A DNA stretch of 64,000 bases, taken from NCBI GenBank assembly GCA_049975205.1, contig JBNGDL010000013.1, positions 12,643 to 76,642 on the forward strand, written 5' to 3'. Each line of letters opens with the position of its first letter. The stretch's first letter is position 1. Shown piece after piece: positions 43,982-60,285 of the stretch. The notes under the pieces were generated by a model, which made no database searches, was not told the origin of the DNA, and saw nothing but the letters and a program-made list of their open reading frames with translations. Origin of the DNA: Anaerolineae bacterium. GTDB lineage: Bacteria > Chloroflexota > Anaerolineae > B4-G1 > SLSP01. A program made the translations under genes and the position numbers.

Positions 43982-45820
43982 CTAAGGCGCGGTCACTGTG
44001 ATTTTGGTCACGCTTGGGACGTATTCATAGCCCGCCAGGACCACGTCGTTCACCGTAAAGGTGATCGAAGCGGTCGTACCAGTCCTGACGTTGGTTGTGA
44101 CCGCGCACTTGCCTGATGTGTCAGTTGTGCAGGTTGCCGCACTGCCATCATCCCAAGAGCCACTCACCACTGCACCCGACAGAGCGGGATCGATCGTCGC
44201 GATGACCGTCGCCCTCCAGAAGTTCTTGTTGATCGTGGTGCTGATGTCCGCGAGGGACGCCACCGTGATCGTATCACCCGTGCCTCCGCCGCTGCTGACC
44301 GTTACTTGCTTGCTTATGTTACCGGTCGCGCCGTCATCGTCGGTAACGGTCAAGCTCACAGTGTACGTACCGTCTGCGGCGTAGGTGTGCGACGGATTCT
44401 GGGCCGTCGAGGTCGCCCCGTCTCCAAAGGCCCAGCTCCAGGAGGCGATGCTGCCATCCGAGTCCGTGCTTGCATCGGTGAAATCGACCGTGAGGTCGGA
44501 TGTAGTGTACGTGAAGTCAGCGGTTGGCGGCTGGTTGGTCTCGCCGCCCCCGCCTGCCTCGACTAGAACGGGGTTGAAGGTGCTCACATCCAGCAAGGGC
44601 TCCTGGATGCCGTCGCCCGAGTCGTCCGTCCAGTCGTAGTTCCCGGCGTTCTTGACCTGATTGTACAGATTGATGACATCCGTGGCGTTCCCTGGGTTGC
44701 TCGCGCTCGCTAGCAGCGCCAGGGCTCCCGCCGCGTGGGGGCTGGCCATCGACGTGCCGCTGATGGTGCCATACTCGCCCTCCTCCAGCGGGAAGGTGGA
44801 CAGGATGCACGCGCCGGGCGCAGCGATATCGACTGCACTGCCCCAGTTGCTGAAGTAAGCCAGCGTGTCGTCCTGATCTGTGAAACAGGTCGGGCTGCCG
44901 AGGCCACCTGGCTCACCGTCGAAGTCGGCCAGCGCGCTCACGGACAACACGTTGTCGAACCCACCGGGGCTGTAGTTGTTGGCGTCGTCGTCCTCGTTGC
45001 CCGCGGCGACCGCAAAGGCCACGCCCGCGGCGACCGCGCCCTGGATGGCGTCGTACTCGGCCTGGCTGAAGCCCTCGCCGCCCAGGCTCATATTCGCGAC
45101 TTCAATGCTGCTCGCATTGGCGGTGACGTGGTCAATCCCGGCGACGATCGCGGAGCTGGGGCAGCTGCCCGAGGCATCGCAGACCTTCACGGCCCACAGA
45201 CGAGCGCCGGGGGCGACTCCGACGACGCCAAAGTCGTTGTCCAGCGCGGCGATCGTGCCGGCCACGTGCGTGCCGTGATAATGATCGTCGTCCCCGCCGG
45301 CACCACAGCTGTATGTGCGGTTCCACGGCGCACCGGTCCCGCTGCTGATCAAACAGGTCGTGCTGCTGACGACGTTGAGGTCGGGATGGTCGAGATCGAT
45401 GCCCGTGTCGATGACGGCGACGTCCACGTCGACGCGATAGTCGTCACTCCCGTCGATATCAATGCCGCCGTTGGTGTCCGCGAAGATGCGGCTGATGCCC
45501 GTGGGCACCGTCTGGGCGCTGATCGAGCGCTCCATATCCTCCACGACGTAGGCTACGCGTGGATCACGCTGCAGGGCCGCCAGTCGCCCCGCGGGCACAA
45601 CCGCGGACATACCCTTGAGCGCGTGCTGATAGATGAAGCCCGGCTGCAAGCCGTAAGCGCGTGCCAGACCGTGCGCCTCAGCCACCGGGCTCGTCGTGTC
45701 CTTGAACACGATGATGTACGGCGCCGCCGTCGGGTCGGCTGCCATGACGGGGCCGACAGCCCCGCCCACGAGTGTTGCCAACAGCACCAAGATCGTCACC
45801 AAATTCCACTTGCTTCTCAT
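43982..45820 (-). CDS. Secreted S8 subtilisin-family protease with I9 propeptide, PKD domain and C-terminal beta domain
   Basis: Catalytic triad motifs VAVIDTGID, HGTHVAGT and GTSMASPH. PKD domain (ADFTYT...WSWAFGDG...YTVSLTVTDDDG). Signal peptide. Confidence 0.9.
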   Translation of the reverse strand: MRSKWNLVTILVLLATLVGGAVGPVMAADPTAAPYIIVFKDTTSPVAEAHGLARAYGLQPGFIYQHALKGMSAVVPAGRLAALQRDPRVAYVVEDMERSISAQTVPTGISRIFADTNGGIDIDGSDDYRVDVDVAVIDTGIDLDHPDLNVVSSTTCLISSGTGAPWNRTYSCGAGGDDDHYHGTHVAGTIAALDNDFGVVGVAPGARLWAVKVCDASGSCPSSAIVAGIDHVTANASSIEVANMSLGGEGFSQAEYDAIQGAVAAGVAFAVAAGNEDDDANNYSPGGFDNVLSVSALADFDGEPGGLGSPTCFTDQDDTLAYFSNWGSAVDIAAPGACILSTFPLEEGEYGTISGTSMASPHAAGALALLASASNPGNATDVINLYNQVKNAGNYDWTDDSGDGIQEPLLDVSTFNPVLVEAGGGGETNQPPTADFTYTTSDLTVDFTDASTDSDGSIASWSWAFGDGATSTAQNPSHTYAADGTYTVSLTVTDDDGATGNISKQVTVSSGGGTGDTITVASLADISTTINKNFWRATVIATIDPALSGAVVSGSWDDGSAATCTTDTSGKCAVTTNVRTGTTASITFTVNDVVLAGYEYVPSVTKITVTAP

Positions 45821-46087: not shown

Positions 46088-48364
46088 TTAGGGCTGCGGT
46101 AGGGTTATTTGGGTGCCGTCACTGTCCCCGTCGGGGTCGGTGTTGGCTGATGAATCATACGTCATCTCGATGTGGGAGATCGCCTCGACCGTAAAGATCA
46201 CAAGGCTGACGTTTTTCTTGATGTCCTGGTTGCTGAGACTGCACGCGCCGGTTGCGTCAGTCGCGCACGAGACCGTGCCGGAGACCCCGTCGCTCCAAAC
46301 GCCGTCGACCGTGGCGTCAGGCACGGGGTTGCCGTTGGCATCGAGGACCATCACGACAACGACGGCCTCCCAGCGACTGCGGTTGGCGCTCGACGATCCA
46401 TCCAGATCGCCGATGTGCATCGTAACCCCTGGGTCAGGCGTCGGCGTAGGGCTGGGTGTTGGGGTCGGCGTGGGCGTGGGACTCGGTGTTGGCGTTGGGG
46501 TCGGGCTCGGTGTCGGCGTGGGGTCACCGCCACCGCTGTAGACCTCGAACTCGCTCAACCAATTGCGCCAGCCGTCGTGGCTCCAGGCTGTGGATTCCAG
46601 CCTCACGTAGCGCGCTGAGTATGGCCCGAAGCTGGCGGAGTCCACGCCACCATCCCCGGCGGTCGTGCTGAAGACAGGTGTCCACGCGGCCCCGTCCGGT
46701 GAGACGGCGATCGCATAGCTGGTGGCGTAGTAGTCGCCCCACGTCAGCACAACCCTGCCGACGGGCACGCTGGCCCCGAGGTCAACTGTGATCCACTCCG
46801 AGGGTAGCTTGTTCCTCCCCACCGCCTTCTCTGTCATCCAGTAGGTGACGGGATCTCCATCTACCGCCATCTCCCCGCTGTGGTCGCCGTCCTCGAAAGA
46901 GGAGGCCGTGACGGCGCTGTTCAGCGCCAGGTTGACCGTTGGGTCTGGCGTCGGTGCGTTCAGAAGCCATTCGTACGCGGCCCAGAGGTCGAGCCGACCG
47001 TACCCGAAATCGTTATCCGGTCCGACAGGTCCCAGATCGACGGCGCTGTTGAGGAGTGCGGCTTCCTGTTCAGCGATCGATGACGCCGGGAACGCGGACA
47101 GAAGAAGAGCCAGCCCGCCTGCGACGTGCGGTGCTGCGAGAGAGGTGCCCGTAGCATCGGTGTAGGATCCGTACAGATCTGTCGTATGGATGCTCACCCC
47201 AGGCGCCACCAGCTCGGGGAAAATCATCTCCATTTCCCCGCATCCTGAGGGGCCGCGGCTGCTGACCACGTAGACCTGGTCACTGTTATCTGTGGCCCCC
47301 ACCGCGAAGGCGGATGGATTGTTCGCCGGGCTGAAGCTCGTCTGCGGGTCGGGTCCGCCGTTGCCTGCGGCGAAGACCGGCAAGATGCCGGCAGCGCGCA
47401 AAGACTGAAGATCCAACTCGAACTCGAGATCACAACCGGGTGACGCCATGGTCCAGGAGTTGTTGACCGTGTGAGGGGCATCCGGTGTGGAGGGATCGCC
47501 GTCGGGATCCAGCAGCCACTGGAATCCCTGATGGATGGCTGTGGCCGTCGCTCCACCTTGATCGTCAAAGATCTTGACGGCAATCCATTCTGCGCCAGGT
47601 GCGACGCCGACGGCTGTCCCGCCTTCATTGCCGCCGACCATCACACCCATGGTCCACGTACCGTGACCGCTTAGATCTACGGGTGTATCGGGATGCTCGC
47701 CGTATGGGTCGAACCAGCTGTTTGCCCCGCCTCGCCAGCGACTGCTCAGGTCTGGGTGGCTGACGTCTACGCCGCTATCCATGTTGGCGACCACCGCTCC
47801 CTGACCCGAGATGCCCAAATCCCACAATTCGGGTGCGCCGACGACGGATAGGTTTGGTTCCGGAAGTCCGGCTGTCTGCGTGGTCGTGATTTCGATGGCG
47901 TCCGGTGTGATCTTTGCCACGTCGGCTCGCGCGGCCAATTCCTGAATCACATCTCGTGTCGCCGTCACCGCGAGGCCATTGAAGGCCCAGAAGGAAGCGA
48001 CGTGGCTGACCTTGCCTTTGGCCTGCCGGGCCGCCAATAGGGCTCTGATCTGGCGCTGAGACGCCTCCGCCTTGGCTTGCAGAGCGCGAATCACGCCCTC
48101 CTGACGGGCGGCTCGACTTGCGCCCGGTATCTCGCTCAGATCTGCCTGGTCGACAAGGGTGACGATGACGGTTGTCATCTCCCCCTCTTGCAGCGAGGCC
48201 ATCGCGGCATGCACCGAGGGGGCGATCTTGTCATCTCCCGCCTGCCCATATTGAGATGTCGGCTCGAAATCCAAGGCAGACAGTTGGGCCCCGACAGGGC
48301 CGGCGGTCAAGACAAATGACAACACCAAGAGAACCAACGGGATTCGGGCAGCTATCGTCCGCAT
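46088..48364 (-). CDS. Secreted S8 subtilisin-family protease with F5/8 type C (discoidin) domain, Pro/Thr linker and C-terminal beta domain
   Basis: Start re-set to MRTIAARIPLVLLV (AAGGAGAG RBS). This removes the apparent overlap with the upstream gene. VANMDSGVD, HGTWTMG, GTSLAAPHVAGG. Discoidin domain (AVDGDPVTYW...WITVDLG...ARYVRLE). Confidence 0.9.
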   Translation of the reverse strand: MRTIAARIPLVLLVLSFVLTAGPVGAQLSALDFEPTSQYGQAGDDKIAPSVHAAMASLQEGEMTTVIVTLVDQADLSEIPGASRAARQEGVIRALQAKAEASQRQIRALLAARQAKGKVSHVASFWAFNGLAVTATRDVIQELAARADVAKITPDAIEITTTQTAGLPEPNLSVVGAPELWDLGISGQGAVVANMDSGVDVSHPDLSSRWRGGANSWFDPYGEHPDTPVDLSGHGTWTMGVMVGGNEGGTAVGVAPGAEWIAVKIFDDQGGATATAIHQGFQWLLDPDGDPSTPDAPHTVNNSWTMASPGCDLEFELDLQSLRAAGILPVFAAGNGGPDPQTSFSPANNPSAFAVGATDNSDQVYVVSSRGPSGCGEMEMIFPELVAPGVSIHTTDLYGSYTDATGTSLAAPHVAGGLALLLSAFPASSIAEQEAALLNSAVDLGPVGPDNDFGYGRLDLWAAYEWLLNAPTPDPTVNLALNSAVTASSFEDGDHSGEMAVDGDPVTYWMTEKAVGRNKLPSEWITVDLGASVPVGRVVLTWGDYYATSYAIAVSPDGAAWTPVFSTTAGDGGVDSASFGPYSARYVRLESTAWSHDGWRNWLSEFEVYSGGGDPTPTPSPTPTPTPSPTPTPTPTPSPTPTPDPGVTMHIGDLDGSSSANRSRWEAVVVVMVLDANGNPVPDATVDGVWSDGVSGTVSCATDATGACSLSNQDIKKNVSLVIFTVEAISHIEMTYDSSANTDPDGDSDGTQITLPQP
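46436..46522 (-). repeat. Imperfect hexanucleotide repeat encoding a 29-residue (PTPTPS)n linker
   Basis: Encodes PTPTPSPTPTPTPSPTPTPTPTPSPTPTP. The plus strand shows GGCGT[CG]GG-type periodicity. Confidence 0.9.
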
Positions 48365-48380
48365 AGAGTCTCTCCTTTGC

Positions 48381-48878
48381 TCACTGCGCGACGATTGGCT
48401 CAAGCCGCACGTCGCCGAACTCTACGATCACAGGGGTGCCGGGTTGGATAAGGCCTCCGTTATTGGCGAAAAAGATGAATAAAATCCCGCCTTCTTCCCA
48501 TCGGATGCCATCGGCCAAGCCCTCGGCTCTAGGTAAGGCCTCGCCGCTCTCTGCGGCGATCAGCCTTGGCATGTTGTTCGGATCCTCCAGGAACCTGCGG
48601 GCCTTCTCCACGTTGTGGATCTTCAGACGGACATCGATCATGCCGCCTCCGGCGGTCACCCCGATCAATCGCACGCCTAGCCCGTGGCGCGCCTCCAGTT
48701 GTGCCGCGGACACAAACTGCGTCCCTCCGAGCGTCCCCTCAGCCGGCGTGGCCTTCCACACGCTGTAACCAAGGAATCCTACGGTGGCGAGCACCACGAG
48801 GACGATAAGCAGCACCGGTCTGACGCGCCGGTGAGTCGATGCTGGCATAGGTTCATAGCTAGTGATCTGTTCACTCAT
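48381..48878 (-). CDS. Single-pass membrane-anchored protein, unknown function
   Basis: TM VRPVLLIVLVVLATVGFLGYSVW, then a domain of about 120 aa. GGGAGG RBS. Its stop lies 16 nt before the next gene's start. No family recognised. Confidence 0.55.
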   Translation of the reverse strand: MSEQITSYEPMPASTHRRVRPVLLIVLVVLATVGFLGYSVWKATPAEGTLGGTQFVSAAQLEARHGLGVRLIGVTAGGGMIDVRLKIHNVEKARRFLEDPNNMPRLIAAESGEALPRAEGLADGIRWEEGGILFIFFANNGGLIQPGTPVIVEFGDVRLEPIVAQ

Positions 48879-49014: not shown

Positions 49015-52000
49015 TCACGGGCCGATGACTGTCTGCCGTCTCGACACAAAGGCATCGAAGTACAGCGTGCCCGATGCATTGCTGGTCAGGCCGTCGGAGG
49101 GTCCTAGATGGACCGCTTCCAACAGGTAGGCGCTGGTGTCCAGCCCTGTCAGCGTCTCCACCGACGTGCCACTGTCGATGTAGAGGCTGAAGGATGCGTT
49201 TGCCCCCGAGGCCCAGTCGATCTCGATCCAGTGTGGCGTGGTGGGATCGATGGTATACCAGGCGGTGTTGGTGAACGCACCACCTGACAGTGCTGAGGCA
49301 CGTATCTGGTAGGTGCCGCCGGCCTGGTTCTGACGCCGGTACTGCACCCGGAAGATCGTGGTGTTCACCGCGTCCACGCCGGCGAAGATCGTGTATGCTT
49401 GATTCTGGCCGGTCAGGGCGCTGTTGGCGTTGAAGTAGAAACGGGCGTGGTAGCTCGGCTCTTGAGCGGGCGTGAGGTCCGTGACGTAGCCCGGCGTGAT
49501 GCCGGCCATGACCGCTTCCATCCCAAATCCATCGCCATCGATTGCTGCTGTGGCAGCCGCGCTCACAGGACCTACTGCACCGCCGTTCCAGGTCGTGAGG
49601 TCGCCGGACGCGAAGCTATCGGCGAAGATGTCGTCAGGAGGCACCACGGCGAGCACGACGCTTTGCGCAGCGCTCCAGTTCCCCGCGGCGTCCTGCGCCC
49701 GCACATAGAGCGTATGATCGCCGGCGCTGAATCCGCTCATGTCGATCGACGCTGTCAGGCCCTCCGTCATGCTATCGAAGGCGCCATCCGTGGCAGCCAT
49801 CGGGATGCCATTGCTCATGCCGGGATCAACGCCTGCATACCACTCCGCCTTGACGATGATCGCGTCGGCGTCGGTGGCGTTCGCCGTCAGCGCTACGGTG
49901 CTCGCGCCATCCGTCGGGTTGGGGTCAGCAACGACGTTACTGACCGTCGGTGAGGTTTTGTCGATCACCAGGTCCGTGGCTGTGGCTGTGCCCCAGTTGC
50001 CCGAGGCGTCCTGACCGTGGACCCAGATCTGATGCGTACCTTCCGCAAGTTGGTTGATGGTCGAGAGCGGGATGTAGGCATACGCCGCTTCCAGCAGCTC
50101 GTCGAACAATCCATCACCTGGTGTCAGTGGGAAGCCGGTGCCATCCGTGCCGACGGTATCGATGAAGCCCTCGACTCGTGAGAGCGTGGAGGCTGTATCG
50201 CTGAGGGTGGCATCCACTCTCACGGCGTACCGAGTTGGGTTGTAGGGAAGGGCGCCGTTGTTGGGGTTGGGGGTCGCCGTGACGTCGCTTGCCGTCGGCC
50301 CTGTCACATCCACGACCAACGTGGTCGTGACGTAATCCCCCCACCATCCAAAGGCATCCATGCTGTGGACGTAGACGGTGTGTTCTCCTTCTGAGAGTGT
50401 GCCCATCGTTGCCGCGTCGATGCTGCCCTCGAGTCCCGCGATCGGTGCTGTGACGTTGGTGGTCAACGGTAGGCCGTCGCCATTGATCCCGGTGGCATCG
50501 ATGAAGTATTCGGCGGCGGCGATGTCGCTGTTGCCGGTAGCCGAGTCATCGCCGGTAGCGGTGATCAGCACCTCCGCGCTACCGTCGCTTGGGTTGGGTG
50601 CAAGGGAGACATCGCTGGTCGCGGGCCCCAGCTTGTCGAGATGGAGCACGCTGAAGTTGAACGCGCCCCAGTTGCCCAGGGCGTCTTGCCCGTGCACGTA
50701 GATGGTGTGATCGCCAGACGGCCAGTTGGCCAACGAGGCTGTGGAGATGGCTACGCTCACATCCTCCGTTGGTGAATCGAAGGCGCCATCGGCGGCAACC
50801 AACTGTATGCCCGTCCCAGGAACGCCCGCTGTGTTGGTGAAGTACTCAGCGGCTTGGATGTTGGCGCCTCCAGTGGCGGCATCGCTTACCGTCGCGCTTA
50901 GGCTCACGTCTACCGAGCCGTCTGCGGGGTTGGGCGCCAGCGCCATCGCGCTGGTCGTCGGCCCGGCGATGTCATCCGTTGGGACGCCATCCGTGACGGT
51001 GATGAAGGTCAGCATCCCGCCAAAGCCTGCCGCTCCATTGTTGTGCAGCAGCATACTGGTGTCATAGAGGGCGTAGCGGGTGTCGCCGACCGTGCCTGCT
51101 TCTGCGGGCACCGTGACCAAGCGATCACTCGTCTGGCCCGATCCGACCGTGGCGGATGCTACCTCATACGGGTAGGAGAGCGGGCTCCCGTCCACCGCTA
51201 TTACCTTCTGATGCATCCCGAGCACGCCTAGCGAGTGTTGCACGATCCCGGCGTTGACGATGCGCAGCAAAATCGTGTTGCCGGCCATGCTGAGGATCTC
51301 ATCCGTCTGCGGATAGGCCTTCCCGTTGATCAGGAAGTACTTCGGTGCGTAATCCCGCATGTCGAAGGCGGCAGGATCCGCGCTGTTGTTCAGCGCAGGA
51401 TCGATCTCGCTGAGTACCAACAACTCCTCATCGACGAAGGTGGTGGCCGCGTCGGTGTACGCCTGGTTGATGGCGGCCGCGGGCCGCACGACCAGAGCGC
51501 CGAAGAGGCCCATCGCCACCTGATGCTGAGCGTTGGGTAGCAAGCCGGCCTCATAGAGGTAAGTGCCGGGGTTGCTGGCGGTGAAGCTGTAGGTCTTGGT
51601 GCCGCCGGGAGCCACGCCTGTCAAGTCCGGCATCATCGCCTGACCTGGGAAGACCAGCGCGGTGTTGTCCGCAAGGTCGTTGTGCAGAACCACTTGGACG
51701 GTCTCGCCCTGGTGGGCGATCAGGGCCGGTCCGGGAAGCGAGGGGGCCCCGCCAACTGTACTTGCGTAACCCCAGATCGTCACCGTGGCCCCGTCTGGCA
51801 AGTTGAGCGAACCGGTGGTTGCCCAGACCTCGCAGGTGCGGGTGTTGGTACCTCCATCATAGGTGCAGGTACTATCGGGTAGGGTGGCCGCTCGGACTGC
51901 GCTGGCGGGCGCCTCGGGTGGTGCAGCCAGGGTCAGAAACACCTGACTCAGGCTGACAACTGCGAGCGCCACGACCAGCAGGATTGGGACGCTGATGCTA

Positions 52001-52026
52001 GCGATTCGTCGCAATTTGGTGTTCAT
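49015..52026 (-). CDS. Secreted multidomain protein: copper-ligand-free two-cupredoxin (MCO-like) module, four Ig-like repeats and a C-terminal jelly-roll (LamG/ConA-like?) domain
   Basis: N-terminal signal/anchor. Residues about 45-345 are paralogous to the 52067..53392 product (ALVFPGQ vs SIMFPGQ; GTYLYEAG..MGLFGALVVRP vs GTFVYQSG..MGLFGVLIVRP) but lack HxH/HCH motifs. Four repeats of about 110 aa follow. Confidence 0.8.
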   Translation of the reverse strand: MNTKLRRIASISVPILLVVALAVVSLSQVFLTLAAPPEAPASAVRAATLPDSTCTYDGGTNTRTCEVWATTGSLNLPDGATVTIWGYASTVGGAPSLPGPALIAHQGETVQVVLHNDLADNTALVFPGQAMMPDLTGVAPGGTKTYSFTASNPGTYLYEAGLLPNAQHQVAMGLFGALVVRPAAAINQAYTDAATTFVDEELLVLSEIDPALNNSADPAAFDMRDYAPKYFLINGKAYPQTDEILSMAGNTILLRIVNAGIVQHSLGVLGMHQKVIAVDGSPLSYPYEVASATVGSGQTSDRLVTVPAEAGTVGDTRYALYDTSMLLHNNGAAGFGGMLTFITVTDGVPTDDIAGPTTSAMALAPNPADGSVDVSLSATVSDAATGGANIQAAEYFTNTAGVPGTGIQLVAADGAFDSPTEDVSVAISTASLANWPSGDHTIYVHGQDALGNWGAFNFSVLHLDKLGPATSDVSLAPNPSDGSAEVLITATGDDSATGNSDIAAAEYFIDATGINGDGLPLTTNVTAPIAGLEGSIDAATMGTLSEGEHTVYVHSMDAFGWWGDYVTTTLVVDVTGPTASDVTATPNPNNGALPYNPTRYAVRVDATLSDTASTLSRVEGFIDTVGTDGTGFPLTPGDGLFDELLEAAYAYIPLSTINQLAEGTHQIWVHGQDASGNWGTATATDLVIDKTSPTVSNVVADPNPTDGASTVALTANATDADAIIVKAEWYAGVDPGMSNGIPMAATDGAFDSMTEGLTASIDMSGFSAGDHTLYVRAQDAAGNWSAAQSVVLAVVPPDDIFADSFASGDLTTWNGGAVGPVSAAATAAIDGDGFGMEAVMAGITPGYVTDLTPAQEPSYHARFYFNANSALTGQNQAYTIFAGVDAVNTTIFRVQYRRQNQAGGTYQIRASALSGGAFTNTAWYTIDPTTPHWIEIDWASGANASFSLYIDSGTSVETLTGLDTSAYLLEAVHLGPSDGLTSNASGTLYFDAFVSRRQTVIGP
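49636..50964 (-). repeat. Four tandem protein-level repeats of about 110 aa (Ig-like)
   Basis: Each unit contains [LA]xPNPxDGS...AAEY[FW]...G.G..L...DG.FDS..E......S....L..G[DE]HT[IVL][YW]VH[GS]xDAxGNWG. Approximate residues 355-797. Confidence 0.75.
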
Positions 52027-52066: not shown

Positions 52067-53392
52067 CTACGGGCACCCACCGGGCGGGTCGATCCGCAGG
52101 AAGGTGATGGGACCCGTCATGGGTGCGCCCCAGGACGTGATCTTGTGTAACGCATGGATGTGCGAGATGACGTAGTACTCTCCGCATTCGTTAAGCGTGG
52201 TGAAGTCGACCGGGAAGACGCCCTGCTCGCCCAGGTAGGGGCTGCCGCTGTAGAGCGGGCCGAAGCCCACGTCCACCGGGCTGGGGATGTCCACCGTGAC
52301 CGGGTTGGTCTCAGGATCGTATCCCTCTGAGTCGGACCACCTGAAGAGGCCGTCCCATGTCTGGCCCGGGCCCATAGGCACAGAGAAATTCTCGTAGGCG
52401 AGATCCTCTCCGGCAGGCCCTTCCAGCGTGCGCCCGTCGCGGCTGGTAATCAGCGCGCTCTTGCTGTGCGGGTGCATTGGGAGGTCTACGGTGCCGACGC
52501 TGACGTATCGCCCCAGCGACCAGTCAGGGTTGTAGTTGGGCAGGCCAGGGTCGTCCTGGAAAGGTTCGACACGCGCCAGCGCACCGTATGGCTGAGACGG
52601 CAGCCAAGAGGCGTAGTTAGGCGCGAAGCTGTCGGGAAAACCGCGGCCGTTGATCAGCCAGTAGCGGGGATGGTAGTTGGCCATATCGAAGGTAAACTCC
52701 TCACCGTAGAGCATCTGGCGCTCAACCGCTTGGTTCAGGTAGGGGTCGATCTCCGACAGCAACACCAGGAACTCCGTGTCGGGGTTGAACTCGCTGTCCG
52801 GACGGTTGTTGACGTAGTTTGGTCCAAGGCTCGGGCGCACGATGAGTACGCCGAACAACCCCATACGGACCTGCTTGGCGGGGTTTGTGCCGCTCTGATA
52901 GACGAAGGTGCCTGGGCTGGTGGCCGTGAAGCTGTACGTCACGCTGCCGCCGTTGGCAGGCGCCACGTTTGTGAGTGAAGTGAGCTCGCCCGTGACGGCG
53001 TCAAACTGAGGTTGCGCCGGTGCACCATCCGCCAACACGTTCTCCTGCCCGGGGAACATAATCGAGACGTCCTCTGGCAGCGTATTCTGCAGGATGATGG
53101 TCACTGTGTCCCCCTCAGTGACGCACAACACCGGGCTTGGGTGCTGGAAGGGCTCGTCGCTTTCCGAGTAGCCCCACATGTAGACCACGTTGTCGTCGGG
53201 GGTTCCGATATAGCCCGTCTTCGTGGTCAGGGTGAAGGTGGCGTCCGGGCTCGTGGTACAGACAATGCCCCCGGTGGGGCCTGCCTGTGCGGCTGCGAGC
53301 TGGACGTTTATCGCCGGAGCGACAAAGACGAGCAGCAAGATCACCGCGAGTGCCGGTCTCCACCGTATCTGCTTGAGTAGTTGTGTATGCAT
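52067..53392 (-). CDS. Secreted two-cupredoxin multicopper-oxidase-like protein lacking a type-1 site but keeping two HxH pairs in domain 2
   Basis: Sec signal peptide. Domain 1 has no His motifs. Domain 2 has LPMHPHS (H307, H309) and ISHIHALH...M (H411-I-H413), i.e. HCH with Cys replaced by Ile. Confidence 0.75.
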   Translation of the reverse strand: MHTQLLKQIRWRPALAVILLLVFVAPAINVQLAAAQAGPTGGIVCTTSPDATFTLTTKTGYIGTPDDNVVYMWGYSESDEPFQHPSPVLCVTEGDTVTIILQNTLPEDVSIMFPGQENVLADGAPAQPQFDAVTGELTSLTNVAPANGGSVTYSFTATSPGTFVYQSGTNPAKQVRMGLFGVLIVRPSLGPNYVNNRPDSEFNPDTEFLVLLSEIDPYLNQAVERQMLYGEEFTFDMANYHPRYWLINGRGFPDSFAPNYASWLPSQPYGALARVEPFQDDPGLPNYNPDWSLGRYVSVGTVDLPMHPHSKSALITSRDGRTLEGPAGEDLAYENFSVPMGPGQTWDGLFRWSDSEGYDPETNPVTVDIPSPVDVGFGPLYSGSPYLGEQGVFPVDFTTLNECGEYYVISHIHALHKITSWGAPMTGPITFLRIDPPGGCP

Positions 53393-53426
53393 TTTCTGAC
53401 TCCTTTTTGTTACGTGTGGGTCCAGC

Positions 53427-54770
53427 CTAAGTGTTGGGCAGCGCTTGCGGGCCCAACGTGTTGCTCGGATACACCCGCACCTCTGTCATAGGTCCTCCGA
53501 AGCCGGAGGGATCCCGGTTGTTGATGTGGCGGTAGTTGCGGTTGTAGAGCAGGTAGGTGTCGTACGGCCCGGGGCCATGGTAGGGGGGCGCCTCAAAGAT
53601 GGCGTCATAGCTCTCGCCGACCCCGATGAAGATGCTGTTTGTCTCGTAGGTGAGATCGGTGTCGTCCCTTCCACGCAGTAGCGTGGCATCCTTGCCGACA
53701 ACCCGCATTCTGATGCCACTCAGGGTCATGTTCTGCTTGCTGAATCCTAGGTTCGAGAAGCGGAGTAGCACCCGCTCCCCCTCGTTAGCTTGCACCAGCG
53801 AGGAGAGGGGCTGGTACTTGAGATGCTCGTAACCGGGTGTTGGAATCAGATCCCCGGTGCTGTTCTCATACTCGGGGTTCCGGAAATCGATCGAGCCATT
53901 AGGCGCGATGGTGTCCGGGTAGACCCGACCGTTGAGCAGGTGGAAGTCGGCTCGATATTCATCCCAGTTGGGCAGCTGCACGTGAGAGAAGGCCCAGTGG
54001 GCCTCGGCCCAGATCTCGGTGAGCAGCATGGCGAATTCGCGATCGTACCCCGTTGAACCATCGCCATCGTTATAGGCGTATTTGCCGCTGGGATAGAATG
54101 TCGTGTCGCCGTTCTGCATCGGTCGCACGAACACCAGGCCTGTCATACCGAGATGCACGTGCTCGACGTCTTCCACGTGGCAGTGGTACATATAGGTGCC
54201 CGGTTCGCGGACCCGATAGGCGTAGGTGAACTCGCCCGCAATGGGTACTGCCAAGGACGTGTTAGGCTCGCCGTCGAAGAAGGGGATGACGTTCCGCAGG
54301 CCGTGGAAGTGGACTGTGTGCTCGTCGATCAGGTCCGGGCGCATGGTCAGGCCAAGATTGGTGATCGTCAGCCTGAATTCGTTGGGATTCCCGACCTCGT
54401 CATATTGATCGATCCAGAACAAAGGGGACGGATGCGTCGCCTTGCCCTTCTGGGCTTCCTTACGCTTCTGATTCATCCCGGTCACGTTGCGGAATCCGAA
54501 CATATAGGTCGTGAAAGGAGCGGGCGCTAGGTTGTCCGGATGGTATGGCGAGATAGCCGGCGATGACGGCAGCGAGATCCACGCATCCGTACCCGCCAGG
54601 TACATATCCGGGTCGCCGTTCGCCGCCTCCACGACCTCGATCGGCTTCAGCACATTTCGCCCTAGAGAGCTGGGCAGCAGCCGGGTTCCTGCTGCAGCGA
54701 CTAGGCCACCGCCGACGAGCTTGAGAAAGCTCCGTCTGTTGAGTCTACGGCTAGATAGTTGTTCAGTCAT
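53427..54770 (-). CDS. Tat-exported two-cupredoxin multicopper oxidase with type-1 site and two HxH pairs in domain 1
   Basis: Twin-arginine signal NRRSFLK. HTVHFHG (H151, H154, H156). YMYHCHVEDVEHVHLGM (H196-C197-H198, H204/H206, M209). Domain 2 has no HxH pairs. Confidence 0.85.
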   Translation of the reverse strand: MTEQLSSRRLNRRSFLKLVGGGLVAAAGTRLLPSSLGRNVLKPIEVVEAANGDPDMYLAGTDAWISLPSSPAISPYHPDNLAPAPFTTYMFGFRNVTGMNQKRKEAQKGKATHPSPLFWIDQYDEVGNPNEFRLTITNLGLTMRPDLIDEHTVHFHGLRNVIPFFDGEPNTSLAVPIAGEFTYAYRVREPGTYMYHCHVEDVEHVHLGMTGLVFVRPMQNGDTTFYPSGKYAYNDGDGSTGYDREFAMLLTEIWAEAHWAFSHVQLPNWDEYRADFHLLNGRVYPDTIAPNGSIDFRNPEYENSTGDLIPTPGYEHLKYQPLSSLVQANEGERVLLRFSNLGFSKQNMTLSGIRMRVVGKDATLLRGRDDTDLTYETNSIFIGVGESYDAIFEAPPYHGPGPYDTYLLYNRNYRHINNRDPSGFGGPMTEVRVYPSNTLGPQALPNT

Positions 54771-54845: not shown

Positions 54846-57800
54846 CTAGGGCGCTACCACTACTTCGTCGGCGCCCGCGTCGTAGAGATTTCCCTGCGGA
54901 CGGAGATCGCCGTCGATGTCGTCCGCGGGGGCGCTGATACCGTCCTTCGCCATCGCGCCGAGGTCAATCGCGGGTGAGCCAGTCTGTAGATGGAAGTCAC
55001 CCAGCCGATCCACTCGGGTCTCCACTGCGACGATCAGGGCATCGACGAAGTTGGGGTTGCCGCGCCAGGGCATTGCCTGCACGCTGACGTCGAACTCCTC
55101 GAGGACTATCGGATCGCTGCCCACGATGTTAGAGGTGTCGAGAATGGTGCCCGTGGCGACCTGAAGTAGCGAGTTGGTCGGTGCCAGCAAACCCGTGCCA
55201 TCAGCCACGCCTAGGTCCCAGTGGTAGATGGGCGTCAGGTCCCCGGGCTGGCCGATGCCGGCGATGCCGCCGCCGGTCCACGTGCCGGCCCTGTTGTCCC
55301 AGAAGATGTTGTTGAACAGCAGAGGGGAACTGAAGATGGGCGATCCCACCGGCAGGGTGGCCTGCAGAAGCGCGCTGTTGCGCGAGCTGGACAGGCCGGC
55401 CGGAGCGGGTTGCCCGTTGCTGGTCACGGCTGTGGCCGTCGTAACGTTCTTCATCACGGTGTTGTTGTAGAAGCGAACATCTGGTGCGTCGTTGAGCGAC
55501 ACGCCGCCTCCCTCGTGAGTCGAGATGTTGTTGATGATGATGTTGTTGTAGACGTTGTAGGGGAAGTCCCCGGCCATCAGGAAGCGCAGGCCGCCACCAT
55601 CGTCATTGCCCAGATTGGCCTGGATCAGGTTGGCGTAGACGTCCACGGGGCCTGCACCAGGCGAGAGGGTGGCCGGATCGGCCGGCAGTTCGCCGGCGAT
55701 CATGAGGCCGCCGCCCTCGTCGTAGGCGCGGTTGAAGGTAATCCGATTGTGATGGATCGCGCCATTGGGGCTGAGTCCGTAGTGGCTGATGCCCCCACCG
55801 TACTCGGCCGAGAAGTTGCCGCAGATGTCGTTGTAGGCAATCTCGTATCCCTCGGACCCAGAGAACAGACCGATGGCACCCGCCAAGTTCGTGCCGGCGT
55901 TCGCCAGGATACGGTTGTGCGCGATGCGTACGAAGTCGTTCTGGTTGTCGTTGAGCGCGCCCGGTAGGTGCGGCGTGCCCAGGCGAATCGCGCCTGCATA
56001 GGCACCGCCGTTGCTTTGCAGGATGTTGTTCGTGATCTGCAGATAGCGCGCGTAACCGTTGGCGAAGATGCCGCCGCCCTGCACAGCTTGGGCCTCTTTC
56101 AGGGCCGGATCGACGGTTAGGTTGTTAGGGAAGCCCTGTTGATCGCCACCCTGGATCGTGAAGCCGTCGATGCCGGAGGGGCGGCTGGTGCTGAAGTCGC
56201 CATCTTCGGCCAGGATGTAGACCACGGGGCCCTCATAGATGGCCTGGTTGCCGTCCCAGTTCAGGCTTGCCACGAGGGTGCGCCACGCTTCAGCGTAATC
56301 GGTATCGCCTGCCACGCCGCGCCCGTCGATGATGGAGCCGAGGACAGCTTCGTTGGTGTCCGTGTAGACGCCGCCCGGCCCAACACCTTGGAGCATAACC
56401 GGCTCGTACATCACCACGTTCTCATAGTAGACGCCCAGGGGGTTCCACTGAGCGGGTGTGTCGGGGTAGACCACCACGAGCGCCTCGCGATTACTGTTAC
56501 CTCGGGACGCCCTGTCCACACCGGCCTGGATCGTAGGATAATCCCGACCGGGGCCGACCTCGACGACGAGTGGGTTGTAGCCCTGTCCGATGATGTGGAA
56601 GGTCAGACCGTTGACCGTGCTCGCACCAGCTGCATTCGTGATAGCGAGTTGATAACGACCCGCCGCGGTCCCTGCAGGCACCTCCACGTCGATCTGTTGA
56701 TCGGTCCAGTTCAGAATCGTCAGCGGGAGATCTCCAAGCGTGACCTGGCCTTGTACCTCACCGAAGCCGAGGCCCTGGATCGTGAAGATCCCGCTGCTGT
56801 TGCCCCTCAGTTCGAGGTACGGTTGAGAGACGGCGAACAGCTGTGGTTTGGTCGGATCGACGCTGCAATCCGGTGGCGCCTGTTGCGTCGTCGAGGGGTT
56901 CAGCACCCCCGGAACCATCCGCGTGGGCGCTAAGTCAGAAGGCACCATGAGGCCAGACCAGATCTCAAACGTGGCCCCGATCGTGCGGTATTGTGGGTTG
57001 TAGTTCGGGTTGAGCTGTCCAGGCTGCCCGGGGTCGTTGCCCAGCATATAGTACATGCTGGCGCAGACGCCTGAAGGAGAGGGGCAGTTGACTGTGTGCG
57101 TTGAGGGCAAAAGCACCTCGAACGTACCGTTGAAGTCGGAGGTCACCGTGGTAACCAACCGATTGTTGAAGTCATAGATGCCAATGGCGGCATCGGGTAG
57201 GCCGGCCTTCTCCCCGAAGTAGAGACTGCGCTTGTCGGTGGACAGCGTCAGGTCGGAGATAATGTATCCCTTCCACTTTCCGGGGATTGGGACCTCGGTG
57301 AAGAGGGTGAAGGCAGGCGCAATTGACTTGCCGTTGTTCAAGGTGACGAGCTTGGTATCGCAGAGCGGCTTCTCCATACCCTCAAAGGGGCTGCCGCCCT
57401 CAGCCGCGAAGCTGGGGTTCTCGACAGCGTTCGGGCCATCGACGCCGACGCCCGCGACGTCCACCGTGTGAAGCGAACCGGCGCAAGCCGACGGTGGCAC
57501 CGCAGGCTCGTACTGATCGCCACCGAAGACGTTGACGTCCTCCTCGCGCACTACCTGGTACATGGGCCGCCCCAGGGCATCCTCAGGGATGACCACCTCG
57601 ACGAGGTAGTCGCCCGCCGGGATGTCTACCGGCGATGCCAGAGGGGCACCGGTGACCGGATCGGTCACGATCTCAGTGAAGCCCCAGTTTCCGTCCAGGG
57701 TGGCAAAGCCAGACTGGAACTGCGTGCCCATGACGGGGCCCTCCAAACAGCGGTAACCATCGAGATTGTCTGCATCGGGACCATATGGTGGCAGGACTTC

Positions 57801-59810
57801 CTGAACTCCGTCAGGACCAAAGGTCAGGGGATTGCCGTTGGCATCCCGCGCGGTACAGTTCTTGGGCTGCTCCCAGATCTCGGTCTCGGTCTGGTTGAGC
57901 AGGAAACCCTTCTTCAGGGCGCCATCCGCCTCGATCTCGAACTGGCCCGTAGGGTCACATTCCGCACCGGCATTGGTCCCACAGGGCACGGTGGCGTAGA
58001 GGTTCATCGTCAGGCCAGGGATGCCGGGTGACCAGGGCTCAACGGCCTGATAGCGCGGATCATACTCGTTGCGGGTGACGTCGTAGAAGACGGAGCCCAC
58101 GATACCGCCGTTGGTACCGGCCTCGTAGGCGTGAACGCCCCAGTCAAGGCGACCGGGTTGGCCTAGGATGGGCAGGAATCCAACGTCCACCCCATCGCCC
58201 AACACCGTGGTCGGCTCAGGTTGATTGTCGACCTGGTAGGTGATGCCGGTGGTGTAGTAGCGGTCGTTGTAGGCCTCGAGGACCATCCACGAGCCCATAG
58301 GGTAGGCTCTCTCAAAGACGTAGTATCCGGTCGGGTCGGTCGTGGCGGCCACCGTCATGCGGTCGATCTCGCTGTTGTCTCGATCTCGCAGGACGATTGG
58401 GTAGTTCGCCAGGCCGGGCTCACCTGCGTCCTTCTTTCCGTTCTTGTTCAGGTCGTTGAAGACGTAGCCTTCGACCTGTGTGAACCAGCCGGTGAGCATC
58501 TGGGTGCCCATGTCGTAGACTTGGCCATCGGAGACGGTGATTTGGGTCCAGTCGAGGATATAGTGCAGTTTCTCGTCCCACCAGGTGAAGAGGTAGTTGC
58601 CGTCGGGCACGCCCGGAATGTAGAAGGTGCCATCAGGATTGGCCGGGCCGACATATACGGCTGTGTCGCCAGCCTGCAAGTCGGAGAGGGCCACCCAGGC
58701 GTCCTCAATGGGCCCGGTGACCTTGGCACCATTTAGGCCACCCCAGGTGCCGCCCTGGTAGGGTAGGGCGTTCTGCTGGGGTAGATAGACTGAAGCTGCT
58801 GCGATGGTGCCGGAGACGCCTCCGGTGCCGCCCGCCAGGGTGTTCATCGGCTTGGTGAAGCCGAACCAGGTCCACGGGAAAGGTTCGGCGCCGACGACGA
58901 ACTCGTTATCCAGGCCGGTGCCGCCCTCAGCTAGCCAAGTATCGAAGCTCCACGAGCCCTCCAACGTCGTGGTGTGGAGCCAGCCTTCGCCGGCCGGCGG
59001 GGCCACTTCGACGTCATAGCGGTTGGGGCCCAGGTTGGGGATGACGATGTCACCGTTTGCGTCGCTGTAGAGGCAGTCGGTGGTTCCCGTCCCAGGGATG
59101 GGATCTCCGTTGGCGTCGTATTCGGTGCAGAGCGGATTCCCGAAGACGTCCGTGGTGATGTCCCCCGCGGGATCCTTGACAATCGCCATGAAACCGTCCA
59201 GGCCACCCTCAGCCGGGGCGTCATATTGGCCATTGACCGGCGAGATGTCTTCGAAGACTTTGATCCGCATCGTGGCGCCGGGCAGCGGATGGGGCTGTAG
59301 CTCGACCGTTACCGGTCCCTCGAGCGGGACGCTGAAGTGGGCGCCGCCCATCTTGTAGTCCTCTGCCAACACGGAGATGAGGTACTTGCCCGGCGGCAGA
59401 TCGATGCCGGTGCCCAGCACCCCGTTGAAGTCATCTTGATCGCCCTGGGCGTAGATCGGCGCCGCGCCTGGGACCTCCCGAATTGAGGGCCAGTCGCAGC
59501 TATCGGGGTAGTTCGGATCCCTGGTTACGCCATCTTCCAGGTAGGGCGAACACCCGGCCTCGTAGGGTTGGGTGGGGTTGCCCGTGTTGTCGACGTTGAT
59601 AAGGTACTTGTACTCGTTCACGGGGTCACCCTTGAGCACCGCGCCGCCGGGATGGTCCGGTTCGTCGCGGGCACTGACCACGCTCAGGCTCAGCGTGTTG
59701 GTCGCTTGGGCCTCGGCATTCGGCACGTTGGCCCCAATGGCCGGAAGGACGACCATCAGCAGCAGCGCCAGACGAAAGGCAAGCGATAGGATAGATCTCT
59801 TACGTGTCAT
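54846..59810 (-). CDS. Giant (1654 aa) secreted surface protein: Cna-B/SdrD-B-like and carboxypeptidase-regulatory-like domains, IPT/TIG-like domain, right-handed parallel beta-helix
   Basis: Signal peptide ending AEAQA. SdrD-B motif GYVFNDLNKNGKKDAGEPGLANYPIVLRD...TDPTGYYVF. IPT-like segment (IQGLGFG...QIDVEVPAGTAAGRYQL). PbH1-type repeats (NNIIINNISTHEGGGVSL, NRILANAGTNLAGAIGL). C-terminal DIDGDLRPQGNLYDAGADE. Confidence 0.85.
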   Translation of the reverse strand: MTRKRSILSLAFRLALLLMVVLPAIGANVPNAEAQATNTLSLSVVSARDEPDHPGGAVLKGDPVNEYKYLINVDNTGNPTQPYEAGCSPYLEDGVTRDPNYPDSCDWPSIREVPGAAPIYAQGDQDDFNGVLGTGIDLPPGKYLISVLAEDYKMGGAHFSVPLEGPVTVELQPHPLPGATMRIKVFEDISPVNGQYDAPAEGGLDGFMAIVKDPAGDITTDVFGNPLCTEYDANGDPIPGTGTTDCLYSDANGDIVIPNLGPNRYDVEVAPPAGEGWLHTTTLEGSWSFDTWLAEGGTGLDNEFVVGAEPFPWTWFGFTKPMNTLAGGTGGVSGTIAAASVYLPQQNALPYQGGTWGGLNGAKVTGPIEDAWVALSDLQAGDTAVYVGPANPDGTFYIPGVPDGNYLFTWWDEKLHYILDWTQITVSDGQVYDMGTQMLTGWFTQVEGYVFNDLNKNGKKDAGEPGLANYPIVLRDRDNSEIDRMTVAATTDPTGYYVFERAYPMGSWMVLEAYNDRYYTTGITYQVDNQPEPTTVLGDGVDVGFLPILGQPGRLDWGVHAYEAGTNGGIVGSVFYDVTRNEYDPRYQAVEPWSPGIPGLTMNLYATVPCGTNAGAECDPTGQFEIEADGALKKGFLLNQTETEIWEQPKNCTARDANGNPLTFGPDGVQEVLPPYGPDADNLDGYRCLEGPVMGTQFQSGFATLDGNWGFTEIVTDPVTGAPLASPVDIPAGDYLVEVVIPEDALGRPMYQVVREEDVNVFGGDQYEPAVPPSACAGSLHTVDVAGVGVDGPNAVENPSFAAEGGSPFEGMEKPLCDTKLVTLNNGKSIAPAFTLFTEVPIPGKWKGYIISDLTLSTDKRSLYFGEKAGLPDAAIGIYDFNNRLVTTVTSDFNGTFEVLLPSTHTVNCPSPSGVCASMYYMLGNDPGQPGQLNPNYNPQYRTIGATFEIWSGLMVPSDLAPTRMVPGVLNPSTTQQAPPDCSVDPTKPQLFAVSQPYLELRGNSSGIFTIQGLGFGEVQGQVTLGDLPLTILNWTDQQIDVEVPAGTAAGRYQLAITNAAGASTVNGLTFHIIGQGYNPLVVEVGPGRDYPTIQAGVDRASRGNSNREALVVVYPDTPAQWNPLGVYYENVVMYEPVMLQGVGPGGVYTDTNEAVLGSIIDGRGVAGDTDYAEAWRTLVASLNWDGNQAIYEGPVVYILAEDGDFSTSRPSGIDGFTIQGGDQQGFPNNLTVDPALKEAQAVQGGGIFANGYARYLQITNNILQSNGGAYAGAIRLGTPHLPGALNDNQNDFVRIAHNRILANAGTNLAGAIGLFSGSEGYEIAYNDICGNFSAEYGGGISHYGLSPNGAIHHNRITFNRAYDEGGGLMIAGELPADPATLSPGAGPVDVYANLIQANLGNDDGGGLRFLMAGDFPYNVYNNIIINNISTHEGGGVSLNDAPDVRFYNNTVMKNVTTATAVTSNGQPAPAGLSSSRNSALLQATLPVGSPIFSSPLLFNNIFWDNRAGTWTGGGIAGIGQPGDLTPIYHWDLGVADGTGLLAPTNSLLQVATGTILDTSNIVGSDPIVLEEFDVSVQAMPWRGNPNFVDALIVAVETRVDRLGDFHLQTGSPAIDLGAMAKDGISAPADDIDGDLRPQGNLYDAGADEVVVAP

Positions 59811-59904: not shown

Positions 59905-60285
59905 TCAGGGTTGTGGACCTTGAGCGATCTTGATGTGTGTCAGCCGACGTAGTTCGGCCAGCAGTTGCTCTGGCCCCTCGGCTTTGGAGAGAAAGCCATC
60001 GGCGCCGGCGGCCAAGGCAGCCTCCTCAGTCTCAGGCCGCCAGCTCAGAACAATGATTCGAGCTGGCAGCTCCAGCGCACGCAGCGCGGACAGCAGTTTG
60101 CCTGCCGGCCAGCCCCTCAACTCCCATTCGAGTAATATCAAGTCCGGCTTGAGCGCCAACGCTTCGGACAACAGGGTGTTGGCTCCTGAGACCTCACCGA
60201 CGATGCTCAGTTCGGGCTCCTCGGCGAGGAACATTCGCAGAGCGTGTCGTACCTTCGGATGGCCATCGGCCAACAACACACGCAT
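59905..60285 (-). CDS. Stand-alone receiver (REC) domain protein, NarL-type, with Glu at the phospho-acceptor position
   Basis: MRVLLADGHP...KPDLILLEWELRG aligns with [12 protein letters not shown] of the 63311 regulator. The acceptor Asp is replaced by Glu53 (codon 60127..60129). There is no output domain. Confidence 0.8.
   Translation of the reverse strand: MRVLLADGHPKVRHALRMFLAEEPELSIVGEVSGANTLLSEALALKPDLILLEWELRGWPAGKLLSALRALELPARIIVLSWRPETEEAALAAGADGFLSKAEGPEQLLAELRRLTHIKIAQGPQP

Follow-up and report, generated by a model that had tools for sequence, protein, structure and literature searches.

The window analysed here, 64,000 nucleotides of contig JBNGDL010000013.1 (positions 12,643 to 76,642 of the forward strand) in the assembly GCA_049975205.1 of an Anaerolineae bacterium, contains on its minus strand a co-oriented run of genes with short gaps, which in the open reading frame (ORF) list encode, in this order, the proteins D, A, B, C and E, an S8 subtilase and a second subtilase (coordinates below are those of the window, on the minus strand unless otherwise indicated). 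The intergenic distances are 75 nucleotides for D-A, 34 for A-B, 40 for B-C and 136 for C-E, and the first subtilase gene overlaps the end of E by 23 nucleotides. A, B and C are exported proteins with two cupredoxin domains each; the copper ligands of a multicopper oxidase (MCO) are divided between A and B and are absent from C, and the three proteins are likely to be subunits of a single heterotrimeric enzyme. In a species-level scan with one genome per species, at least 445 loci with a relative of A were found, and the best 80 of these were analysed, providing 79 orthologues of A, 73 of B and 73 of C.

Protein A (53427..54770) consists of 447 amino acids with two cupredoxin domains according to Pfam, PDB matches and the orthologue alignment, and exceeds the Pfam cut-offs of PF07732, PF07731 and PF00394. 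Its first domain possesses a type 1 (T1) copper ligand set together with two HxH pairs, and its second domain is without ligands. In the motif HTVHFHG (residues 151-157; 54300..54320), which aligns to HTIHWHG of solved enzymes, H151 is a T1 ligand and H154 and H156 are a cluster HxH; in the motif HCHVEDVEHVHLGM (residues 196-209; 54144..54185), H196 and H198 belong to the cluster and C197, H204 and M209 to the T1 site. No HxH occurs in A after residue 209. The ligands of domain 2 have been lost at T349-L-S351 (53718..53726), which aligns to the HSH of mgLAC AMHSHG and to H307-P-H309 of B, and at N410-R-N412 (53535..53543), the presumed position of the second HxH according to a manual alignment of YLLYNRN to YYVISHIH of B; N410 and R411 are invariant or nearly so among the orthologues. 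A twin-arginine translocation (Tat) signal, LNRRSFLKL (54717..54743), has invariant R12, R13 and F15 and a nearly invariant K17, and an RRxFL-like motif is present in 75 of the 79 A orthologues of the Chloroflexota/Actinomycetota clade.

Several other features of A were observed. A nearly invariant loop, YNDGDGSTGYD (residues 233-243; 54042..54074), resembles a calcium-binding loop, and the invariant H258 and H263 lie within AEAHWxxxH (53982..53999); both elements belong to an insert that mgLAC-type enzymes lack, and the loop is kept in the distant clade of fused proteins described below. The axial T1 ligand is Leu instead of Met in seven of 150 A-family representatives (P0256, P0276, P0291, P0326, P0335, P0389 and the fragment P0325), a change that raises the redox potential in other MCOs.

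Protein B (52067..53392) is a 441-amino-acid protein of two cupredoxin domains, exported by the general secretory (Sec) pathway, as judged from Pfam, profile alignments and the orthologue alignment. It exceeds the Pfam cut-off of PF07732 and is 100% identical to P0121, annotated at NCBI as a protein of an Anaerolineae metagenome-assembled genome (MAG). Alignment to A with hhalign identifies SIMFPGQ (53045..53065) and YQSG (52889..52900) in domain 1 as the degenerate counterparts of HTVHFHG and YHCH of A. Domain 2 retains MHPH (residues 306-309; 52466..52477), in which H307 and H309 are the first HxH, and SHIH (residues 410-413; 52154..52165), identified by the orthologue alignment and a pattern match, in which H411 and H413 are the second. 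H307 and H309 are found in 73/73 orthologues, H411 in 71/73 and H413 in 72/73, the exceptions being alignment gaps. The T1 positions are occupied by Leu304 instead of His and by Ile412 instead of Cys. Four nearly invariant cysteines, C45/C90 and C403/C440, look like disulfide pairs, one in each domain, of which the second brackets SHIH; such pairs would fit folding of B after Sec export.

Profile-profile alignment of A and B (probability 99.8%) placed HTVHFHG of A over VSIMFPG of B, and in the hhalign comparison YHCHVEDVEHVHLGM of A lies over YQSGTNPAKQVRMGL of B and MHPH of B over MTLS of A. Because this alignment superposes the motifs at homologous positions, the ligand losses are truly reciprocal, in agreement with an initial sequence-only reading of the locus, which had described B as the mirror image of A, its domain 1 ligands lost, MHPH and SHIH kept, and Leu and Ile at the T1 positions. 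The same reading had assigned to A a T1 set and two HxH pairs in domain 1 with no HxH in domain 2, and its seven His and Cys ligands are conserved in 79/79 orthologues. Among the 79 A and 73 B proteins, no conserved His occupies a ligand position in domain 2 of A or in domain 1 of B.

The trinuclear copper cluster of MCOs is held by eight His arranged as four HxH doublets. At this locus the complete set exists only as the sum of A and B: two doublets are in A domain 1, two in B domain 2 and none in C, and the ligand count permits exactly one cluster per A-B-C set. The cluster of a two-domain MCO (2dMCO) is composed of residues from two protomers of a trimer (PMC13151041), and because it spans two protomers, the half-site of A and the half-site of B would be completed only by each other. 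A homotrimer of A, or of B, is predicted to be incapable of forming a complete cluster.

The best PDB matches of A were type-C 2dMCOs: 2ZWN (mgLAC; E=2e-9) and 3G5W (the blue copper oxidase of Nitrosomonas europaea; E=2.5e-8). HMMER aligned HTVHFHG of A with HTIHWHG of both structures and the Cys-containing motif of A with YHCHVNVNEHVGVRGM of mgLAC, and a profile of 38 B orthologues aligned FHPHG with MHSHG of 2ZWN and IHTHG of 3G5W; in all, three of the four HxH motifs have an aligned counterpart among the known ligands of solved type-C 2dMCOs. The spacing of Cys to the His at +7 in A is that of mgLAC and the N. europaea oxidase, so the Cys-to-His/Met spacing, at first taken to be atypical, is that of type-C 2dMCOs. 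Foldseek searches with predicted models of A and B found MCO and NirK folds; the E values of the MCO matches ranged from 1e-9 to 1e-12, and 2ZWN was the top match of A. The type-C enzymes resemble this system in having two cupredoxin domains per chain, a T1 site with HxH and HCH in domain 1, HCHxxxxxH spacing and an inter-subunit cluster. They have both halves of the site on one polypeptide, with two HxH in domain 2, and form homotrimers with three clusters, whereas in the present system each half belongs to a different gene product, a third paralogue lacks both, and a trimer could hold one cluster at most. The chains of this system also exceed those of the type-C enzymes by about 100 residues and contain conserved inserts.

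All twelve ligand residues of A and B are conserved in 71 to 79 orthologues from Chloroflexota, Actinomycetota, Myxococcota and Proteobacteria. In A, H151, H154, H156, H196, C197, H198 and H204 are identical in 79/79 orthologues and M209 is invariant. Subset alignments of the two families average 54-63% identity per column, and against this background the invariance of the ligands is far beyond chance. The hosts include Anaerolineae, Caldilineaceae, Ardenticatenaceae, Nocardioides, Cryobacterium, Xylanimonas, Actinotalea, Anaeromyxobacteraceae, Candidatus Ideonella and a Sphingomonadaceae MAG.

The gene order D-A-B-C-E-S8 subtilase was found wherever the contig was long enough (tblastn of six proteins of the window against the 80 loci). 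Counting only loci with room on the contig, D is upstream of A in 65/65, B directly follows A in 73/76 before correction (with a median gap of 40 nucleotides), C follows B in 62/63 before correction, E follows C in 56/58, and a subtilase follows E in 48/55. The three missing B genes and the one missing C gene proved to be broken by frameshifts in draft MAGs, and the corrected counts are 76/76 and 63/63. The co-occurrence of A and B, suggested earlier as a check on their partnership, is thus seen as adjacency in 76/76 loci. Pairwise distances of A, B and C are correlated at 0.75-0.78 (0.69-0.78 when E is included), which is weak evidence of partnership, equally compatible with shared descent.

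Database searches for the A clade gave 5652 proteins, and a profile of the A-like domains of fused proteins gave 7916 further. In an exhaustive search of cluster representatives, A-like domains with 40-45% identity were found at the C-terminus of giant proteins of 1000-2800 amino acids, the N-terminal parts of which are homologous to D (P0292 against D, BLASTP E=1e-132). Both A motifs lie in one C-terminal domain of these D-A fusions and the domain 2 half is missing. On this homology, the fusions are a Rosetta-stone link of D to A. The D-like part and the A-like module form one polypeptide in P0292, P0302, P0311, P0320, P0323, P0345 and P0370, and at L081:10001-17374; at the junction in P0311 and P0304, a hydrophobic stretch resembling a sorting signal is followed by a stretch resembling a signal peptide. 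Among the homologues listed, A was never fused to B, nor B to C.

A second large clade, distant from the first (about 44% identity) and found in Proteobacteria and Planctomycetota, has the same division of ligands: A domain 1 has HHHHCHHM, B domain 2 has HPFHxHG and WHSH, and C has none. The counterpart of SHIH in B thus reads WHSH in this clade, where it matches the canonical pattern directly. At the Steroidobacteraceae locus L081, the fusion P0292 is followed by B-like, C-like and E-like genes and is flanked by genes for SCO1/SenC and a cytochrome c. D-A-B-C-E is present at each of three loci, from Methylocaldum, a Desulfuromonas MAG and a Phycisphaerales genome (L085-L087), always close to genes of a PAS-HisKA_3/GerE two-component system; a subtilase and SCO1/SenC accompany it in Methylocaldum and Desulfuromonas, and a cytochrome c in Methylocaldum. 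A of the second clade has a Sec-type signal or is fused to a Sec-exported D. The mixed Tat and Sec targeting of A and B that had been considered unusual is therefore a property of the Chloroflexota/Actinomycetota clade and does not extend to the Proteobacteria.

The complete A ligand set HHHHCHHM is present in 117 of 150 cluster representatives, and seven have the axial Leu; the others are mostly fragments, and a few are degenerate. At the degenerate locus L082 (8001-13723), A has AHHYSGHM and B has YHRN; at L089 (5733-7785) and L090 (6001-8972), A has HYEHCNNM and LDRYCPRM, respectively, and no His is found at the B ligand positions; at L088 (6001-9735), A has RHDRCHQM and B has HHHY. Ligands have been lost from both A and its partner at three of these four loci (L082, L089 and L090), which points the way that a shared site predicts, in a small sample. 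L088 still has an A'-B'-C' triple, and L089 and L090 have only two cupredoxin genes. The copper-less versions look like pseudo-enzyme descendants of the same scaffold.

Protein C (49015..52026) is a secreted protein of 1003 amino acids, the proposed third subunit, recognized by Pfam (Cu-oxidase_3 and Cu-oxidase) and hhalign; PF07732 and PF00394 are above their cut-offs. Two N-terminal cupredoxin domains are followed by immunoglobulin (Ig)-like repeats and a C-terminal domain. The two-cupredoxin core comprises approximately residues 60-347 (50986..51849, from hhalign). Alignment with B had a probability of 100% and 37% identity, and alignment with A, spanning both domains, a probability of 99.7%; by these profile comparisons, C is a true paralogue of both. 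The initial sequence-only reading had mentioned neither C nor the fixed gene order. No invariant His and no conserved copper ligands were found among the 73 C orthologues. Some genomes encode the two-cupredoxin core of C alone, as a protein of 334-335 amino acids (L087 and L088), and the conserved part of C is therefore the part that resembles a subunit.

On the strength of these comparisons, A, B and C are probably three paralogous two-cupredoxin subunits of one extracellular MCO, a heterotrimer equivalent to a six-domain enzyme, in which a single T1 site is accompanied by one trinuclear cluster, located where A domain 1 meets B domain 2. By analogy with homotrimeric two-domain MCOs, they would be arranged, presumably at 1:1:1 stoichiometry, in a pseudo-threefold ring of six cupredoxin domains, of which only one of the three inter-subunit interfaces would be catalytic; those of B domain 1 with C domain 2 and of C domain 1 with A domain 2 would be purely structural. 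A domain 1 would supply the T1 copper site (H151, C197, H204 and M209) and the cluster ligands H154, H156, H196 and H198, and B domain 2 the remaining cluster ligands H307, H309, H411 and H413. According to established MCO chemistry, electrons from the substrate would enter at the T1 copper of A and pass over the bridge from Cys197 to His196 and His198 to the cluster, where O2 would be reduced to water. The ligand-free C would close the ring and tether the complex through its Ig-like and C-terminal domains, and D, E and the subtilase may be accessory parts of the same apparatus. A heterotrimer is the most economical arrangement because the relatives are trimeric and because the ligand-free C is always encoded alongside, sometimes as its core only. 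The earlier suggestion that A and B constitute an obligate hetero-oligomeric oxidase thus gains from the invariance of the ligands, the adjacency of the genes, the same split in the second clade and the tendency to joint loss, but the likely unit is A-B-C and not an A-B pair. That A and B share a cluster can be held with somewhat more confidence than the arrangement as a whole, and that C is the third member of the ring with less.

Five observations weigh against this interpretation. The AlphaFold monomer models, computed from 37-sequence alignments, are of low confidence (mean predicted local distance difference test scores, pLDDT, of 60.1 for B and 56.7 for A), and the poorly modelled parts, B domain 2 and the middle of A, include ligand motifs. 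The fourth motif, SHIH of B as the second HxH of domain 2, was placed by pattern and manual alignment: YYVISHIH was matched to LWMIHDH of 3G5W by pattern only, B domain 2 alone had no match in the PDB, and neither HMMER nor hhalign bridges the conserved insert in B, some 50 residues long, so that the global hhalign of A against B misaligns the C-terminal motif. The place of C in the ring is proposed only from paralogy, synteny and trimeric precedent. Since A of this organism takes the Tat route and B the Sec route, a cluster common to both chains could only be put together and loaded with metal outside the cell, which is plausible in principle. Finally, L088 keeps three of the four B His and breaks the otherwise perfect co-loss.

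An alternative that is unlikely, but the best of those considered, is that A and B form a genuine hetero-oligomer, either a dimer or a trimer with one subunit doubled, and that C stands outside the catalytic ring as a separate surface or adhesion protein of shared ancestry. The ligands are in A and B only; C is the most divergent of the three, with a mean pairwise distance of 0.52 against 0.39 for B and 0.34 for A, and usually carries long Ig- or cadherin-like extensions; and L089 and L090 manage with two cupredoxin genes. Such an arrangement would depart from the characterised 2dMCOs and NirKs, all of which are trimers (PMC13151041), and leaves unaccounted for the presence of C in 63/63 loci and in the second clade, the reduction of C at times to its two cupredoxin domains, and the retention of A'-B'-C' in the copper-less L088.

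Less probable still is that A and B function separately, A as a homotrimer with its T1 site and a novel or NirK-like site made of the four other His of domain 1, and B in a four-His assembly of its own or in a non-redox role. NirK is likewise a trimer of two-cupredoxin chains, in which the T1 site of domain 1 is connected through a Cys-His bridge with a copper site between subunits; it is a precedent for a functional mononuclear site built with a T1 domain that has fewer His at the interface. A, B and C all have weak matches to the NirK family model TIGR02376 (25.5, 37.8 and 55.1 bits, respectively, far below the cut-off of 296). The separate export of A by Tat and of B by Sec in this clade, and the additional invariant His of A, H258 and H263, could be understood in the same way. 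However, A keeps both His of each doublet, HxH and HCH, where NirK has a single His, and A and B together have eight His where NirK has three in total. An assignment to NirK is ruled out by the doublets, the eight His and the sub-threshold scores, and the argument of the sequence-only reading that the doublets, invariant in A, speak against a nitrite reductase is upheld. Moreover, B lacks a T1 site or any other entry for electrons, yet has four invariant His at MCO domain 2 positions; A and B are strictly adjacent, they are split in the same way where both are exported by Sec or A is fused to D, and their ligands are jointly lost in L082.

It is very improbable that A, B and C serve chiefly as a scaffold of cupredoxins with a structural or adhesive role, in which copper chemistry is secondary or absent, as in pseudo-enzymes such as FtsP/SufI or the A domains of coagulation factors: entirely or largely ligand-less sets (L082 and L088-L090) and adhesin-like partners (D and the extension of C) exist, but HHHHCHHM is complete in the window and in 117/150 representatives and invariant in the orthologues, and SCO1/SenC or CopC/CopD accompany related clusters.

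Several other proteins are encoded in the same run of genes as A, B and C. D (54846..59810), the product of the first gene of the operon, is a secreted protein of 1654 amino acids with a signal peptide, in which CarboxypepD_reg, SdrD_B and TIG domains precede a C-terminal parallel beta-helix with a choice-of-anchor-Q end (Pfam and NCBIfam). Searched against Pfam and PDB for functional clues, D gave generic adhesin and beta-helix domains only. The beta-helix part of D-like proteins (P0292 residues 1143-1192 and P0302 residues 201-246) has a very weak match to the beginning of the NosD model, 23-29 bits against a cut-off of 300. NosD is a periplasmic beta-helix protein required for maturation of the copper centre of N2O reductase. 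The match probably reflects a shared fold, and a role of D in copper-site maturation is a possible lead from sequence similarity.

E (48381..48878) has 165 amino acids and an N-terminal membrane anchor, and belongs to an uncharacterised family defined by family alignment and synteny. Its relatives, of about 150-170 amino acids, are membrane-anchored, occur in both clades and share the motifs VTAAGGLVDLRY..DP.KA and YF.L..N. E has no match in Pfam or PDB, and no conserved Cys, His or Met was found in the family alignment. The S8 subtilase (46088..48403, Pfam) has an I9 propeptide, an F5/8 type C domain and a long (Pro-Thr)n linker, and the second subtilase (43982..45820, from the ORF list) has PKD domains. 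A subtilase on the 3' side of E is kept in most loci, including those of Proteobacteria, and the copy in L086 has a weak match to MopE-type copper binding.

Directly upstream of D is a gene for a response regulator consisting of a receiver domain only (59905..60285), and divergent from the operon, on the plus strand, is a gene for a PAS-GAF-HisKA_3 histidine kinase (60808..63261), both recognized by Pfam. In L085-L087, too, the cluster has regulators of the receiver/GerE type and PAS-HisKA_3 kinases on its flanks, and this recurrence suggests that the two-component pair is a conserved, dedicated regulator of the cluster.

Genes for copper handling were found beside related clusters. In Proteobacteria, SCO1/SenC and a cytochrome c of about 500 amino acids are encoded in L081 (9032-9652 and 7401-9053) and L085 (16230-18562), and SCO1/SenC also in L086 (19088-19218); two loci of actinobacterial type encode CopC and CopD (L083:12980-15686 and L084:14384-17086). 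No SCO1/SenC or cytochrome c gene was found among the Pfam-scanned ORFs flanking the cluster in the window. These copper-handling genes would fit copper loading of an exported enzyme, presumably outside the cytoplasm, and the cytochrome is possibly an electron partner.

The proposed assembly has parallels among larger proteins of the cupredoxin superfamily. Ceruloplasmin, to which MnxG is related, is a six-cupredoxin pseudo-threefold ring with a single trinuclear cluster at one interface and no ligands at the others, and factor VIIIa is a heterotrimer of two-cupredoxin "A" units, one of which has extra C-terminal domains, as C has here. Ceruloplasmin and factor VIII are each the product of a single gene, the chains of factor VIII arising by proteolysis, and three T1-type sites persist in ceruloplasmin; here, each of the three subunits has an ORF, a start codon and a signal peptide of its own, and the set has one T1 site.

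Two-domain MCOs have been described only as homotrimers, and three- and six-domain MCOs as monomers, in the literature searched (PMC13151041). The same literature contained no heteromeric or heterotrimeric 2dMCO made from distinct genes. The only "heterotrimer" was Nmar_1354 of Nitrosopumilus maritimus (PDB 9CCK), an alpha-alpha-alpha' assembly from one gene that arises by proteolytic loss of an extra domain (PMC11761707). This protein is among the best PDB matches of B and is a 2dMCO trimer of non-identical chains, as A-B-C would be, but each of its chains has a full ligand set (PMC11761707). MofA is reported to combine all four copper motifs in a single chain, with motifs A and B towards the N-terminus and motifs C and D towards the C-terminus (PMC3618234). 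MofA and OmpB are large secreted proteins encoded beside a MofC-like cytochrome and SCO1/SenC (PMC5566968), a neighbourhood similar to that of L081 and L085. With its four motifs in one chain, MofA differs in architecture from the split A/B pair and from the D-A fusions.

The gene cluster itself has been noticed before. Slit_1812-1818 of Sideroxydans lithotrophicus ES-1 was recognized as a "three cupredoxin" cluster by He et al. 2017 (PMC5566968), and Keffer et al. 2025 (PMC12016527) found its abundance to be higher with magnetite than with Fe(II)-citrate. It encodes three cupredoxin proteins, of which two have canonical MCO motifs and the larger third does not, together with SCO1/SenC, a cytochrome and small hypothetical proteins, and similar clusters were reported in Anaeromyxobacter and Steroidobacteraceae (PMC12016527). 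The three tandem cupredoxin genes with a larger, motif-less third, the gene set as in L081 and L085, and the taxa shared with L026 (Anaeromyxobacter) and L081 are common to both systems, and the window differs in lacking SCO1 and cytochrome c among its scanned flanking ORFs. From the published description, composition and shared taxa, we infer that A-B-C belongs to the same family as the Slit cupredoxins. Both accounts treat the cupredoxins as separate proteins, and a division of ligands between two chains, or a heteromer, is absent from both (PMC5566968 and PMC12016527). Thus the gene cluster is already known, and the ligand split and the heteromeric mechanism were not previously described in the literature searched.

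A broader interpretation, offered tentatively and with considerable doubt, is that A-B-C is an obligate heterotrimer, a living intermediate that links homotrimeric two-domain MCOs to the six-domain MCOs of one chain, and the catalytic core of a widespread extracellular machine that oxidises electron donors which are insoluble or bound to surfaces, for example mineral Fe(II). Other parts of such a machine might be, just as tentatively, the adhesin/beta-helix protein D (sometimes fused to A), the anchor E, the subtilase, a copper supply by SCO1 or CopCD and, in Proteobacteria, a cytochrome.

Annotation pipelines call A and B "multicopper oxidase", and neither can be a complete one. If A-B-C is such an obligate heterotrimer, expression of single "MCO" genes of this kind would be bound to fail, and the split site may explain failures to obtain activity from single genes. 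The heterotrimer, if real, would be a new quaternary architecture, in which an O2-reducing copper cluster is shared by two gene products and a copper-free paralogue closes the ring, and would be a concrete evolutionary intermediate on the way from two-domain trimers to six-domain proteins of the ceruloplasmin type. Induction of the cluster on magnetite in S. lithotrophicus (PMC12016527) is the only functional lead, and makes the split-site model testable for extracellular mineral oxidation.

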